Origin: Candidatus Woesearchaeota archaeon | GTDB lineage: Archaea > Nanobdellota > Nanobdellia > Pacearchaeales > GW2011-AR1 | Length of the DNA: 64,000 bases | Direction: 5' to 3' | Assembly: GCA_964545065.1 (NCBI GenBank) | Contig: CAZJEO010000001.1 | Span: 53,338 to 117,337 of the forward strand | Part shown: piece after piece, positions 13,526 through 59,140 of the stretch | Numbering within the stretch: the stretch's first letter is position 1 | How the letters are laid out: the number at the start of each line of letters is the position of its first letter | Translations under genes and position numbers: made by a program | The notes under the pieces: model-generated | What the model was told of the DNA's origin: nothing | The model's input: the letters and a program-made list of their open reading frames with translations, nothing else | Databases searched by the model: none

Positions 13526-13597
13526 GGTCCATTAGTCCAATGGCTAAGACGACTCGTTTACACCGAGTAGACTCAGGTTCGATTCCTGGATGGACCA
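13526..13597 (+). tRNA. tRNA-Val (UAC)
   Basis: Acceptor GGTCCAT/ATGGACC, anticodon arm ACTCG-TTTACAC-CGAGT, T arm TCAGG-TTCGATT-CCTGG. Confidence 0.88.
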
Positions 13598-13640
13598 TGA
13601 ATCCCTAAATCTTTTTAAATTAATTATATAAGAATTATAT

Positions 13641-14081
13641 ATGCAATATTTAGAAATGACATTAGAAGATAGTTTAGAAGGGATTTTTGATGTTGGAGAA
13701 GAATCATTTAATGAATTTTATCCTAGAGATAAATTTCTCAAAAGATTGCAAGATAGAAAATATTGGATTTATGTGGCAAAAGAAGAAGAGATAGTTGGCT
13801 TTAAAATATTCTATGAAGATGAAGATGGACAAATTTATAATTGGTTAGATGGTATTAAGCCTTCATATGGGAGGAGAGGTCTTGCTTCTGTTTTGATGAA
13901 TATGGAAATTGATTTTGGAAGACAAAATGGATATTCTAAAATAAAATTAAAAACTCATGAAGGACATCCTGAAATGATTGATTTATGTAAAAAATTTGGT
14001 TTTGTTGAAATAAGAAGAGAACCTCATCATTGGAAAGAGAGTATTGATAAAGAAGCTATATTTTTTGAGTTAACTTTATGA
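13641..14081 (+). CDS. GNAT-family N-acetyltransferase
   Basis: 146 aa. The RRGLASVLM acetyl-CoA motif A-like segment and overall size fit GNAT. Confidence 0.6.
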   Translation: MQYLEMTLEDSLEGIFDVGEESFNEFYPRDKFLKRLQDRKYWIYVAKEEEIVGFKIFYEDEDGQIYNWLDGIKPSYGRRGLASVLMNMEIDFGRQNGYSKIKLKTHEGHPEMIDLCKKFGFVEIRREPHHWKESIDKEAIFFELTL

Positions 14082-14100
14082 TCTAGTTTATGACGAAATC

Positions 14101-14109
14101 TTTATATAA
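14101..14109 (+). promoter_or_regulatory. TATA box of tRNA-Gly
   Basis: TTTATATAA lies 22 nt upstream of the tRNA 5' end. Confidence 0.45.
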
Positions 14110-14131
14110 TTTATTTATGAATCAGGTGTAA

Positions 14132-14277
14132 GCGCGGATAGTTTATTGGTAGAATATCTCGTTGCCAATGAGAACCACCAGCGGGTTCTTCACAATTCCT
14201 GCAACCCAGCAGGAAGCTGTAGAATGAATGGTGGAAGCAAAAACGAGGTGAGCCGAGTTCGATTCTCGGTCCGCGCA
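14132..14277 (+). tRNA. tRNA-Gly (GCC) with a 75-nt intron after position 37
   Basis: Acceptor GCGCGGA/TCCGCGC, D arm GTTT-ATTGGTA-GAAT, anticodon stem TCTCG/CGAGG, loop TTGCCA|intron|A, T arm CCGAG-TTCGATT-CTCGG. Spliced length is 71 nt. Confidence 0.85.
14168..14242 (+). other. tRNA-Gly intron (canonical 37/38 position, relaxed bulge-helix-bulge)
   Basis: TTGC (14162..14165) pairs with GCAA (14237..14240), followed by the 3-nt bulge AAA (14241..14243) next to CGAGG. The 5' side is irregular. Internal helices are CCACC/GGTGG, AGAACC/GGTTCT and TTCCTGC/GCAGGAA. Confidence 0.7.
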
Positions 14278-14385
14278 TAACTTTTCGAGAATCTTACCCA
14301 AGGAGGGCACAAGAACCTCTTCGAGGCACTCTCCGAGTTTCCCAAGGGATGATACTTCGTAGGCCTCGATTCTCGGTCCGCGCAT
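14278..14385 (+). other. GC-rich tRNA-Gly pseudo-3'-half with an insert in the T loop (unknown function)
   Basis: Perfect 20-nt repeat of the tRNA 3' end (14259..14278 = 14366..14385). It is preceded by CGAGG and CCGAG-TTT and by the 28-nt insert TTTCCCAAGGGATGATACTTCGTAGGCC, which is also found after tRNA-Trp. Confidence 0.6.
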
Positions 14386-14423
14386 TTAGGAACTTTTAAA
14401 TAGCCGTGATTTATTTTTTCACT

Positions 14424-15980
14424 ATGGAATCAGACAAATCTGAAGATAGAGACATACCTGAGATGAATCTTAATAAAAAGTATTCTAGCAAACTTCCTGA
14501 AATTCCCCAGACACCAGACAAAATTCAAAAGGAAATGGAGAAAGTTAAGAAAGATCTTGAGAAATTGAAGAATTTTATTGTTAAGAAATATTCTTTTACT
14601 CAGGCGATTGGAATCTTGCCGCCAATGTCAATTAAGTTGTTTGTCGAGGAGGAAGAAGTTCCCAAGGAAACAGAAAAGTATGTTCATTTGTATATGATTG
14701 TTCCTGAAGAAAAATTTAAAGAAATACCAAAAATAAAGAAAGAGATTGTGGCTCATATTGAATCAATGAATGAGAAAATTTGGCTTCATATTAAAACTCC
14801 AGTTGATCTTTGGGAAGTTTGTCTTGATAGTAAATTTGATTTGGCCAGCGCAATTGGGATGTCTTTACCTCTTTATGATAAAGGAATTTTGGGAGCATTG
14901 AGGGTAGCAGAAATTCACAAATCATTGGTTTTACAAAAGTTTGAAAAATATGTTGTTAGCTATGTTATTGGGGGAAGTTTAGTTAGGGGAGAAGCTGTAA
15001 AGACTTCTGATGTTGATGTTTTTATAATTATTAATGATACTGATGTGAAGAGAATGCCGAGGTTGGAGTTGAAGGAAAGGTTAAGGGGAATTATTTACCA
15101 GTATGTTGCTGAAGCTTCTGCGCTTGCTGGTGTTAAGAATAAACTTGAACCGCAAATTTATCTTTTGACTGATTTTTGGGAAAGTGTAAAGGATGCGCAT
15201 CCTGTTATTTTTACTTTTATTAGAGATGGAATTCCTCTTTATGATAGGGGAACATTCATGCCATGGAAAGCTTTGTTGAAAATGGGTAAGTTAAAACCGT
15301 CGCCAGAGGCGATTGAGATGTTTATGTCAATGGGGGATAAGACTGTTACTCGAGCAAAAGCAGGTTTATTAGATATTGTGATTCATGATCTTTATTGGGG
15401 GGTTTTAACTCCAAGCCAGGCAGTTTTAATGCTTTATGGTTTGCCCCCACCAACACATAAGACTGCTGCCAATGAAATGAAAAAGATTTTTGTTGATAAA
15501 GAAAAAATGTTAGAATTAAAGTATGTTAAAATTCTTGAAAAAATTGTTGGAATTTACAAGGATTATGAGCATGAGAAAATAAAGGACATTAAAGGTGCTG
15601 AAGTTGATAAGCTGATTAAAGATACAGAAGATTATTTGAAGAGGTTGAAAGAATTGAGAGAGCAAATTGAGAAGCGAACTTCTGAGAAAACAATTGAACA
15701 AATTTATGCGGACACTTTTAGTGTTTTGAAAGGAATGCTTGGAAATAAAACGCAAAAAGCAATGGTTGAAAGTTTTGAGAAAGATTTGGTTAAGAAGGGC
15801 AAGATGCCACCGCACAATTTGAGGATTTTGAAGAATATTATTTCTGCACGAGTAGATTTTAAAAAAGGAAAGTTGAACGTCCATAAAGTTGATGATGCTC
15901 GAAAACAAGCTTCGATTTTGATGAATGATTTGATTGAATATAATCAGAGATGTGATTTGGCTAATGGGAAGAAAAAATAA
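14424..15980 (+). CDS. nucleotidyltransferase-domain protein (pol-beta superfamily) with a long helical C-terminal region
   Basis: ORF 14406..15980. NTase motif GGSLVRGEAVKTSDVDVFIIIND. ATG 14424 sits 22 nt after AACTTTTAAATA (14391..14402). Paralogous to 17469..18329. Confidence 0.7.
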   Translation: MESDKSEDRDIPEMNLNKKYSSKLPEIPQTPDKIQKEMEKVKKDLEKLKNFIVKKYSFTQAIGILPPMSIKLFVEEEEVPKETEKYVHLYMIVPEEKFKEIPKIKKEIVAHIESMNEKIWLHIKTPVDLWEVCLDSKFDLASAIGMSLPLYDKGILGALRVAEIHKSLVLQKFEKYVVSYVIGGSLVRGEAVKTSDVDVFIIINDTDVKRMPRLELKERLRGIIYQYVAEASALAGVKNKLEPQIYLLTDFWESVKDAHPVIFTFIRDGIPLYDRGTFMPWKALLKMGKLKPSPEAIEMFMSMGDKTVTRAKAGLLDIVIHDLYWGVLTPSQAVLMLYGLPPPTHKTAANEMKKIFVDKEKMLELKYVKILEKIVGIYKDYEHEKIKDIKGAEVDKLIKDTEDYLKRLKELREQIEKRTSEKTIEQIYADTFSVLKGMLGNKTQKAMVESFEKDLVKKGKMPPHNLRILKNIISARVDFKKGKLNVHKVDDARKQASILMNDLIEYNQRCDLANGKKK

Positions 15981-58752: not shown

Positions 58753-58834
58753 AAATAAGATATTTCTTGTAAAATAGTACTCGCGAGCCCACTCGCAATC
58801 AAGGGCGATTGAGAAGGCTTCGTGAACGTCGCTC

Positions 58835-58905
58835 GGGTGCGTCGTACACTGGTAGTATACCTGCCTCCAGAGCAGATGAAGGGGGTTCGATTCCCTCCGT
58901 GCCCA
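58835..58905 (+). tRNA. tRNA-Trp (CCA), intron-less
   Basis: Acceptor GGGTGCG/CGTGCCC (two G-U pairs), D arm GTAC-ACTGGTA-GTAT, anticodon arm CCTGC-CTCCAGA-GCAGA, T arm GGGGG-TTCGATT-CCCTC. Confidence 0.8.
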
Positions 58906-58975
58906 TCGGGCTCTCACCCCAAGGGGTTTCCCACAGGGATGACCTACTTCGTAGGCCGCGATTCCCTGGTGCCCA
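58906..58975 (+). other. GC-rich tRNA-Trp pseudo-3'-half with an insert in the T loop (unknown function)
   Basis: AGGGG-TTT + insert TTTCCCACAGGGATGACCTACTTCGTAGGCC (58927..58957) + GCGATT-CCCT-GGTGCCCA mimics the tRNA-Trp T arm and acceptor 3' strand (1 deletion, 1 substitution). The insert matches the one after tRNA-Gly. Confidence 0.6.
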
Positions 58976-59140
58976 TTTCTGTAATAAATAAGGTAAATAA
59001 AATGTCATTTGATGGTTTGCATGTAATTTGTAGTAAGCATTTAGTGGAAACCCGGTATTGTTGCATTGAGATGAAATGGGTTTGCACAAAGTGCGAGCTG
59101 GAAGGGGAAGTTTTATAAATCAAGTGTGTTGCTTTTGGAT

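Follow-up and report, generated by a model that had tools for sequence, protein, structure and literature searches.

The 108 nt that follow a tRNA-Gly(GCC) gene, at positions 14278-14385 of a 64,000-nt stretch of a Candidatus Woesearchaeota contig (CAZJEO010000001.1, positions 53,338 to 117,337 of the forward strand; hereafter the window), are one copy of a lineage-specific non-coding module that is attached to tRNA genes of Pacearchaeota and Woesearchaeota. This module follows, or occupies the T loop of, tRNA-Arg, Val, Ser, Leu, Trp and Gly genes on ~13 distinct low-GC contigs of these archaea. An initial annotation, made from the letters of the window alone, had described the stretch as a second copy of the 3' half of the tRNA with its T loop split by a 28-nt insert. 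The observation was confirmed as real and as much more than chance; the duplication, however, covers only about positions 61-74 of the tRNA, and the description that suits the trailer best is that of a module with a target duplication, not of a 3' half with a split T loop. We tentatively read it, at somewhat less than an even chance, as a miniature T-arm-derived insertion/duplication module that targets the 3' end of tRNA genes and has been retained as a structured trailer RNA.

The window consists of archaeal, AT-rich sequence, in which Rfam at gathering thresholds identified five tRNAs, tRNA-Gly(GCC) among them, and nothing else. Source records assign proteins of the window to Candidatus Pacearchaeota. 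The tRNA-Gly gene (14132..14277, forward strand; RF00005, 46.4 bits) was not called by ARAGORN in the window because of a 75-nt intron in its anticodon loop (14168-14242), in whose sequence a canonical bulge-helix-bulge (BHB) motif was recognised, with UUGC/GCAA as its central helix and CA^A and AA^A as its bulges. The limits of the exons (14132-14167 and 14243-14277) were taken from an intronless orthologue in locus L040 (L numbers denote the loci compared). The 20-mer TCGATTCTCGGTCCGCGCAT, which forms the 3' end of this gene, has exactly two copies in the window, at 14259-14278 and 14366-14385, where shuffles of the window predict no matches, so the perfect duplication reported initially is exact. 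The only exact copy in the window of the first 12 nt of the gene (GCGCGGATAGTT) is the gene start itself at 14132, other matches having 2-3 mismatches, and the second copy indeed lacks a 5' half, as had been noted. The GC-rich character of the 108 nt was also borne out, with a GC content of 0.50-0.54 over 14200-14400 and ~0.27-0.33 in the flanks. A chance or one-off local duplication of no wider meaning, for which the small size of the repeat and nothing else can be said, has a negligible probability, since no matches are expected for the 20-mer and the same architecture recurs at at least eight tRNA species, on ~13 distinct contigs and in several assemblies. The repeat is thus not the random local duplication without further copies that the initial annotation had considered. 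Among the orthologues of this tRNA-Gly gene, those in L040, L044, L173 and L174 are intronless and those in L006 and L045 have different introns, so intron content at this tRNA turns over quickly.

All parts of the tRNA-Gly trailer lie on the forward strand. The first copy of the duplicated segment (CTCGGTCCGCGCAT, 14265..14278) takes in the 3' strands of T stem and acceptor stem together with the discriminator and one base beyond it. Next comes a left arm, TCGAGAATC (14285..14293), the reverse complement of GATTCTCGG, which is the 3' part of the T loop plus the T-stem 3' strand; in the minimum free energy (MFE) fold this arm pairs with 14368-14376. The next 10 nt (14294..14303) are TTAC and a mini-hairpin, CCCAAGG, and fit a motif of the family alignment, (A/T)TCT(C/T)ACC followed by a small hairpin. 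A nested second hairpin unit, AGGGCACAAGAA-CCTC-TTC-GAGG-CAC-TCT (14304..14332), precedes CCGAG-TTT (14333..14340), which matches the T-stem 5' strand and the start of the T loop, as proposed initially. The conserved core, CCCAA GGGATGA TAC-TTC-GTA GG CCTC (14341..14367), has a main hairpin that is 2 nt short (TAC/GTA plus an unpaired GG, against the family consensus CCTAC/GTAGG), and the trailer ends with the module's own GATT and the second copy of the 14-nt tRNA 3' end, then TTT (14368..14385), within the exact 20-nt repeat. The CGAGG at 14322-14326, which had been taken for the 3' strand of an anticodon stem, is the 3' arm of the second hairpin unit (AGAA-CCTC-TTC-GAGG-CAC, 14312-14329). 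Homologues of this unit occur in the L030/L046 trailer, in the L048 trailer, where it replaces the main hairpin, and in an intergenic region of L018, and it looks, by its sequence, like a diverged duplicate of the main hairpin unit. The combination of CACAAGAA with a CCUC/GAGG-type hairpin was seen at 14304-14332 of the window, at ~1850-1885 of L018 (intergenic, near tRNAs) and at 8690-8735 of L048.

Members of the family were collected by pattern and covariance-model searches. A scan with the exact pattern, which covered one genome per GTDB species, returned one locus, in a Woesearchaeota metagenome-assembled genome, where behind tRNA-Arg(TCG) lie the module and then 18 nt that repeat exactly the end of this tRNA from the T loop on. 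A looser pattern applied to metagenome contigs returned 38 loci; all of the low-GC matches shown (GC 0.28-0.36) were true members, and the high-GC matches were chance hits in unrelated sequence. These low-GC members belong to tRNA-Ser (three), Val, Leu, Trp (three) and Val(GAC). Trailer-type members follow tRNA-Ser(TGA), Ser(CGA), Ser(GCT), Leu(TAG), Val(TAC) and Trp, while the insert lies inside the T loop of a complete tRNA-Val(GAC) in L015, of a tRNA-Trp pseudo-copy adjoining an intact copy in L033, and of a decayed tRNA-Val fragment in L011/L012. When 285 kb of related sequence were searched with a covariance model derived from eight trailers, exactly the known members were recovered. Two of these, and no others, are in the window: the tRNA-Gly trailer (14320-14384, 35.5 bits, E = 3e-6) and a trailer behind tRNA-Trp (58904-58975, 75.3 bits), where the initial annotation had already recognised the same insert in the same T-loop position. 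Trailers are thus present on two of the five tRNAs of the window, and the wider search that had been proposed there found the same trailer on other tRNAs, namely at Arg, Val, Ser and Leu genes. Since the motif itself served to retrieve most of the loci, they are a biased sample.

On viral contigs the strict motif had no matches; a looser pattern of the left part matched at least 120 loci and, among the matches listed, none had the rest of the module. Rfam in E-value mode gave no match for the tRNA-Gly trailer and, for the tRNA-Trp trailer, only a sub-threshold hit to the C/D box RNA sR55 on the opposite strand (10.4 bits against a gathering threshold of 35, E = 8.7). No description of the trailer family was found in Rfam 15 or in the literature searched, and the family is apparently undescribed. 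One member has a peculiar host gene: within the first ~250 nt of the oriented locus L034 (minus strand), only the 3' half of a tRNA-Ser(GCT), from the anticodon loop onward, precedes a trailer with an exact copy, at least 19 nt long, of its own 3' end. No tRNA-Ser(GCT) 5' half was found within about 180 nt, and this could be a split or disrupted tRNA.

The order of parts is the same across the family. The discriminator is separated by 1-7 nt (in L004 by about 60) from a left arm whose sequence is the reverse complement of G57-N65 in the local tRNA (TCGAGAATC in tRNA-Gly, GAAAGGATTC in L013, GTAGAATC in L004, AGGAATC in L034). TCT(C/T)ACC leads into a mini-hairpin whose 3' strand is often a copy of the T-stem 5' strand (CCGAG in Gly, AGCAG in Val, GGGG in Trp, TGCGG in L015), followed by TTT, a CCC-loop-GGG mini-hairpin, ATGA, a 3-6 bp hairpin with a TTC loop, CCNC and GATT. 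Read as RNA, GGGAUGA and a covarying, UUC-capped hairpin are followed by CCNCGAUU before the copied tRNA end, which contains the 3' strands of T stem and acceptor stem, the discriminator and 1-2 nt beyond it. The left part of the trailers is antisense to the whole T arm, with U55-C56 as the sole mismatch.

Conservation and covariation are concentrated in the core. GGGATGA is invariant in 14 of 14 members, and TTTCC and CCNCGATTC are further invariant blocks. The main hairpin, a UUC triloop that had been noted as a small YUUCG hairpin, is represented by nine distinct stems, all paired, with 94 % of cells paired and both-side changes at three pairs (16 cells). Pair 2 is A-U in ten members and U-A in four, and pair 3 occurs as U-A, C-G, A-U and G-C. 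This pairing and covariation was not matched by shuffles of arms (0 of 5000) or of columns (0 of 500). The pseudo-T stem is 80 % paired across the 14 members, with both-side changes at four pairs. MFE folds of single trailers were uninformative (Z-scores -0.8 to +0.2), and the MFE structures disagree among members.

The boundaries of the copied segment resemble those of a target duplication. In 11 loci the copy spans from about C61 to 1-2 nt past the discriminator, a consistent length of 14-15(16) nt. The tRNAs of L013 and L018 read CGAAT where their copies read CGATT, and CGATT is therefore the module's own end rather than duplicated tRNA; the left limit of the first copy in the window, at about position 61, was placed from these two loci. 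The apparent split of the T loop is therefore the junction between the CGATT end of the module and the target duplication of 14-15 bp. The tRNA upstream of the module stays intact. Between L047 and L048/L050, a flanking protein is 100 % identical and the tRNA-Trp is identical, with the trailer present in L048/L050 only; L047 and L048 also differ downstream. L173 and L174 are collinear to the left and right of 56 nt that are inserted in L174 exactly at the 3' end of tRNA-Gly and that end with a 10/12 copy of the tRNA terminus. Copies also accumulate. Third copies in tandem were found further downstream in L001 and L045, the second hairpin unit is nested in L030 as in the tRNA-Gly trailer of the window, and the hairpin type is common to modules of one genome (Trp and Gly in the window; both modules of L004). 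In this biased sample, a downstream copy of the last 14 nt was present at 11 of 27 distinct tRNA loci. The repeat in L045 (minus strand, 6120-5990) is 28 nt long (CCCGGCTTGCGCATATATTGGACGAGAA), takes in 15 nt past the end of tRNA-Gly, and occurs as two copies and a third, partial one; this is a trailer type without the conserved hairpin.

Under the insertion reading, the module, or a larger element of which it is a remnant, would insert at the T loop/3' end of tRNA genes and duplicate its target, either by staggered-cut transposition of the casposase type or by site-specific recombination of the attachment-site (att) type. Insertions into the sole functional T loop would be removed by selection, so that the only copies left would be those in redundant genes, in pseudogenes or in the 3' segment that has been duplicated and is dispensable. 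The module would then be co-transcribed as a 3' trailer of the tRNA; no TATA-like sequence lies between tRNA and module, and a T-run follows the second copy. The selected fold would be the covarying hairpin flanked by GGGAUGA/CCNCGAUUC, possibly a non-canonical kink-turn (K-turn), closed by a helix of left and right arms.

Casposons offer a partial precedent for such staggered-cut insertion. The casposase of Aciduliprofundum boonei reads a segment of the TpsiC loop of tRNA-Pro and duplicates 15 bp at the 3' end of the gene, and mini-elements made of casposon ends only integrate in vitro (PMC5137440). The 14-15 bp duplication of the trailers is similar to these 15 bp. However, the target-site duplication (TSD) of the A. 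boonei casposon overlaps the tRNA by 5 bp only (PMC5137440), whereas that of the trailers lies almost wholly inside the tRNA (positions 61-74), and the trailers have no Cas1 or PolB genes among the scanned ORFs, no clean terminal inverted repeats and a left arm that is specific to the tRNA.

An origin from att sites was also considered, in which the trailers are relics of a larger tyrosine-integrase element recombining in the T loop: the tRNA would be the regenerated target, the second copy the displaced fragment, and the module an attP arm left after internal deletion, as in a cis-mobilizable element. The full element, with integrase and cargo, would have been bounded by a GAATCTCACC end and a GGGATGA-hairpin-CCNCGATT end. 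A regenerated tRNA with a displaced fragment is the textbook mark of islands integrated at tRNA genes by tyrosine integrases, for which a T-loop sublocation is recorded in Islander (PMC4383910), and attB of mycobacteriophage Ms6 lies in the T loop of tRNA-Ala (PMC1762012). The trailers likewise show an intact tRNA followed by a direct copy of its 3' end, with identity from the T loop to or past the tRNA end, accretion of copies in tandem and sites at breaks of synteny. In L012 (624-1220), an intact tRNA-Val is separated from a displaced tRNA-Val fragment (identity over GAATAGACAGCAGTT and CGATTCTGCTTAGGACCATT), whose T loop carries the insert, by ~480 nt with two small overlapping ORFs. L012 thus has the form of a miniature island bounded by tRNA repeats; judged by their sequences, its ORFs may be a toxin-antitoxin pair. 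In L041 (146-1500), L042 and L043, tRNA-Val(TAC) is truncated just after the anticodon loop and adjoins an ORF with weak tyrosine-integrase matches, in L041 one of 418 aa with weak matches to Phage_integrase and to a SAM-like N-terminal domain. The ORF probably belongs to an integrated element whose far end is beyond the contig.

The island of L012 and the integrase-like ORF of L041 count for the insertion reading as well as for an att origin, as does the variability around the tRNA-Gly trailer, a recombination-prone locus. When 13526-14424 of the window was compared with L040, L044, L006, L173 and L174 (83-92 % protein identity), the order and orientation of tRNA-Val and tRNA-Gly differed, and so did the small genes between EamA and the nucleotidyltransferase (GNAT in the window, a 78-aa ORF in L040, DUF5654 and DUF378 ORFs in L006). 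In L040 the tRNA-Gly is inverted and lacks an intron, and after 108 nt of unrelated spacer an exact 18-nt copy follows. The att-type origin of the duplication suggested initially fits the empty and filled sites, the displaced fragment behind the 480-nt island of L012 and the tandem copies. As for an integrated element between the repeats of relatives, which had also been suggested, cargo was found in L012 only (the two small ORFs), and no integrase was seen there or between other module-bearing copies.

Relic att sites are an unlikely explanation overall. No integrase lies between or adjoins any module-bearing pair of copies; the variable genes of the window are found beyond the second copy rather than between the copies, and a third copy at the far end of the gene block adjacent to tRNA-Trp was looked for and not found. 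Independent deletions would not leave one architecture of 50-70 nt at ten or more loci and different tRNAs, and double-stranded att arms should show no compensatory changes in a hairpin. Unlike integrase islands, the trailers have 50-110 nt between the copies (87 and 53 nt of non-coding DNA at the two trailers of the window), a conserved covarying hairpin, an inverted copy of a T-arm strand and a displaced T loop broken by 28 nt.

The trailer of tRNA-Trp, which is under purifying selection, also differs from such islands and, as a further point against att relics, is conserved far above the neutral level. The tRNA-Trp(CCA) gene (58835..58905, forward strand; found by ARAGORN, and by Rfam with 52.5 bits) is followed on the same strand by a trailer (58906..58975) that reads TCGGGCTCTCA, CCCC-AA-GGGG, TTT, CCCACA, GGGATGA, CCTAC-TTC-GTAGG, CCGC, GATTC and CCTGGTGCCCA. 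Its 23-nt core is identical to that of the Arg trailer of L001, and the tRNA 3' end, CCCTCCGTGCCCA in the gene, is copied imperfectly as CCCTGGTGCCCA. L005 has the same upstream gene and the same tRNA locus, and between it and the window the trailer is 94.4 % identical (68 of 72 nt), the tRNA-Trp 91.5 % and the last 240 nt of the adjacent ORF 86.7 %, with 69 % at third codon positions. The idiosyncratic copy CCCTGGTGCCCA is common to the window and L005 and unlike both tRNAs. For a neutral scar ~20 differences would be expected in this trailer, and four were observed; the 94 % identity, against 69 % at third codon positions, therefore indicates that the folded module is under constraint. In other lineages, namely L002, L013, L018 and L033 (L033A), the acceptor-strand copy decays while the hairpin core stays, and the 3' side of a solo module in L004/L006 has drifted towards AT. 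The preserved 45-nt core has compensatory changes and a rate of evolution as low as that of the adjoining tRNA, which hints at an RNA function borne by the trailer, or at an RNA or single-stranded DNA structure needed for the mechanism of insertion.

Several of these observations weigh against an insertion module. The conservation of the Trp trailer in situ, which extends to the 3' copy common to the window and L005, suggests a function at the level of the host, and would not be predicted for an insertion scar. The sequences of the left arm and of the T-stem 5' copy depend on the tRNA to which the module is attached; a mobile element of fixed sequence cannot carry such arms, and secondary conversion or selection therefore has to be invoked. 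An element of 50-110 bp is too small for excision as a DNA circle. Pfam was run on 18 ORFs (14 from the window, which has 50 of at least 180 aa, and four from related loci), and in these no transposase, casposase, Cas1 or integrase adjoined any module, the weak integrase of L041 being the only such match. In place of clean terminal inverted repeats there are imperfect internal ones, GAATC-TCA-CC and GG-TGA-...-GATTC. The clean pair of empty and filled sites, L173 and L174, concerns an insert without the conserved hairpin, and the bias of the sample, with loci mostly fetched by the motif itself, counts on the same side.

The signs of constraint raise the alternative that the trailer is a dedicated functional RNA, processed to a small structured RNA, possibly a ribonucleoprotein with L7Ae on a K-turn, which acts on its own tRNA or tRNA gene in the maturation of the T arm or 3' end or in their quality control, or as a scaffold-plus-guide RNA for some enzyme. 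The equal conservation of trailer and tRNA between the window and L005, the invariant blocks, the covarying hairpin and the high GC content of the module in an AT-rich genome would all suit such an RNA, as would a position that is always on the tRNA strand with no promoter-like sequence between, a left part antisense to nearly the whole T arm, and a guide-RNA-like layout of conserved scaffold and variable 14-20 nt 3' end. Nevertheless, only some tRNAs carry the trailer (two of five in the window) and strains with an identical tRNA lack it; it is therefore not essential. The decay of the acceptor-strand copy with the hairpin kept, the lack of an Rfam match and of C/D or H/ACA boxes, the lack of any protein gene consistently nearby, the non-canonical geometry of the putative K-turn with its 4-nt bulge, and a variant in L048 in which the hairpin is replaced and the G of UGA lost also argue against this explanation, which we consider improbable. 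A more specific form of it, that the trailers are a new class of cis-acting, tRNA-linked small structured RNA in which a scaffold, possibly an L7Ae K-turn ribonucleoprotein, is joined to tRNA-specific sequences, appears still more doubtful. Such an RNA might act on its own tRNA or gene by directing T-loop modification, quality control or repair, or might serve as scaffold and guide for an RNA-guided recombinase or nuclease at tRNA 3' ends, which would also explain the spread of the module.

The K-turn-like pairing proposed in the initial annotation is a candidate only. A register in which AUGA opposite GAUU forms A-U, U.U, G.A and A.G pairs beside the Watson-Crick hairpin is sterically possible, and the Watson-Crick part of its non-canonical (NC) stem is 94.6 % paired, with one-sided G-C/G-U changes and no compensatory change. 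At 4 nt the putative bulge, CCNC, exceeds the 3 nt of a standard K-turn, and in the tRNA-Gly copy, whose stem has lost CC, it measures 6 nt. RNAalifold prefers a plain Watson-Crick register, GGGAU:AUUCC with G57 bulged, and the L048 variant has GGGATA, without the G of UGA, and a different, longer hairpin. Because of the bulge, the RNAalifold register and the L048 variant, the K-turn is unproven; the motif is a candidate with a canonical (C) stem backed by covariation, which L7Ae might bind. The K-turn of the box C/D core is bound by L7Ae, and a C/D guide lies inside the euryarchaeal tRNA-Trp intron. The trailers resemble these in the AUGA/GAUU beside a Watson-Crick hairpin and in the linkage to a tRNA transcript, and differ from them in the non-canonical bulge geometry, the missing RUGAUGA/CUGA pair and guide regions, the lack of detection by Rfam C/D models and the loss of the G in L048. 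As box C/D or H/ACA RNAs the trailers were rejected: CUGA, a second box pair, a conserved ACA and guide complementarity are all absent from them. A hammerhead-like core was considered as well; GGGAUGA-stem-GA resembles a C box or domain 2 of the hammerhead, yet C3/U4 and GAAA are absent.

The insert could also be a 28-nt non-canonical intron at 55/56 of the T loop, the copies in the window being decayed exon-intron relics. Non-canonical T-loop introns occur in Thermoproteales. In L015 (minus strand) the insert occupies the only T arm of an otherwise intact tRNA-Val(GAC), which has an anticodon intron with a perfect hBHBh', and removal of 28 nt restores UUCGAUU. This gene is either dispensable or dying, or is processed by some other route. 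Gain of introns by mobile elements is known among archaea, as for the tRNA-Thr of Caldiarchaeum, where gene disruption and intron gain by mobile-element recombination were described (PMC3293823). The trailers share with these cases the fragments beside intact or intron-bearing copies, the T-loop insertion and a heterogeneous population at the tRNA locus; they differ in that the insert has no BHB, has the same sequence in many tRNAs and is mostly found in non-functional partial copies.

A decayed T-loop intron, as suggested initially, was not upheld and is very unlikely. With all compatible registers tried, no 3-4-3 BHB restores UUCGAUU. For a BHB or relaxed bulge-helix-loop with splice sites at U55^U and N^C56, the intronic strand is always AGGC, but the T-stem positions 50-53 with which it would have to pair differ from tRNA to tRNA. 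The sole near-BHB (GGGA/CCNC, bulges UGA and GAU) would splice to a 14-nt loop and leave the T loop unrestored. In contrast, the anticodon introns have textbook motifs, that of L015 with UUGA/UCAA and bulges CUA and AAU. The window copies are without any 5' half, the extra left-arm sequence of trailer-type copies fits no intron model, and L033A and L011 are clear pseudogenes. Standard cleavage of the L015 anticodon intron leaves U at position 37, which is unusual, and this intron contains ACCCCAAAATGGTTTCC, similar to ACCCCAAGGGGTTTCC of the trailer.

Two related identities were rejected. As the 3' half of a split tRNA, the tRNA-Gly copy would need a second tRNA-Gly 5' half, which the window does not have; the copies lack a D arm and an anticodon arm, those of Trp, Arg and Ser begin only at the T stem, and CGAGG belongs to the hairpin unit. 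BHB-type release of the trailer at two identical tRNA ends works for tRNA-Gly only, because of its GCGC palindrome, and fails for other tRNAs.

With miniature inverted-repeat transposable elements and repetitive extragenic palindromes the modules share that they are short, non-coding, palindromic, similar within a genome, sometimes nested and variable among strains. They are, however, strictly tied to tRNA 3' ends, number two copies in 64 kb, are partly derived from their target and are conserved in place. Of the closest precedents, namely integrase att duplications, casposase integration and the formation of fragments and introns by mobile elements, none has a conserved hairpin in a displaced T loop or tRNA-specific inverted arms.

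If the insertion reading is true, the tRNA 3' ends of Pacearchaeota and Woesearchaeota are the target of a miniature structured module, which would account for orphan tRNA 3' fragments and for GC-rich islands behind tRNAs in AT-rich, streamlined genomes; trailers would then mark hotspots of gene gain, loss and inversion. The loci form a series for the origins of T-loop insertions and tRNA fragments, from the empty site through the filled site, tandem copies and the insert in a complete gene to the decayed relic. Trailers can also mislead tRNA callers, through partial T arms and T loops with a 28-nt insert.

Two features adjoin the Trp locus. Directly 3' of the trailer, at 59002-59118, is a Cys-rich ORF of 38 aa (MSFDGLHVICSKHLVETRYCCIEMKWVCTKCELEGEVL), which is missing in the trailer-less L047 and kept behind the variant trailer of L048/L050 (83.5 % nucleotide identity). 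On the other side, a 55-nt GC-rich block (58780-58834) lies between a promoter-like AT-rich region and tRNA-Trp and is missing from the orthologous L005, L046 and L047. It holds a CAATC...GATTG inverted repeat and GGCTTCGTG, reminiscent of the trailer module, and may be another small insertion, here in the 5' leader.

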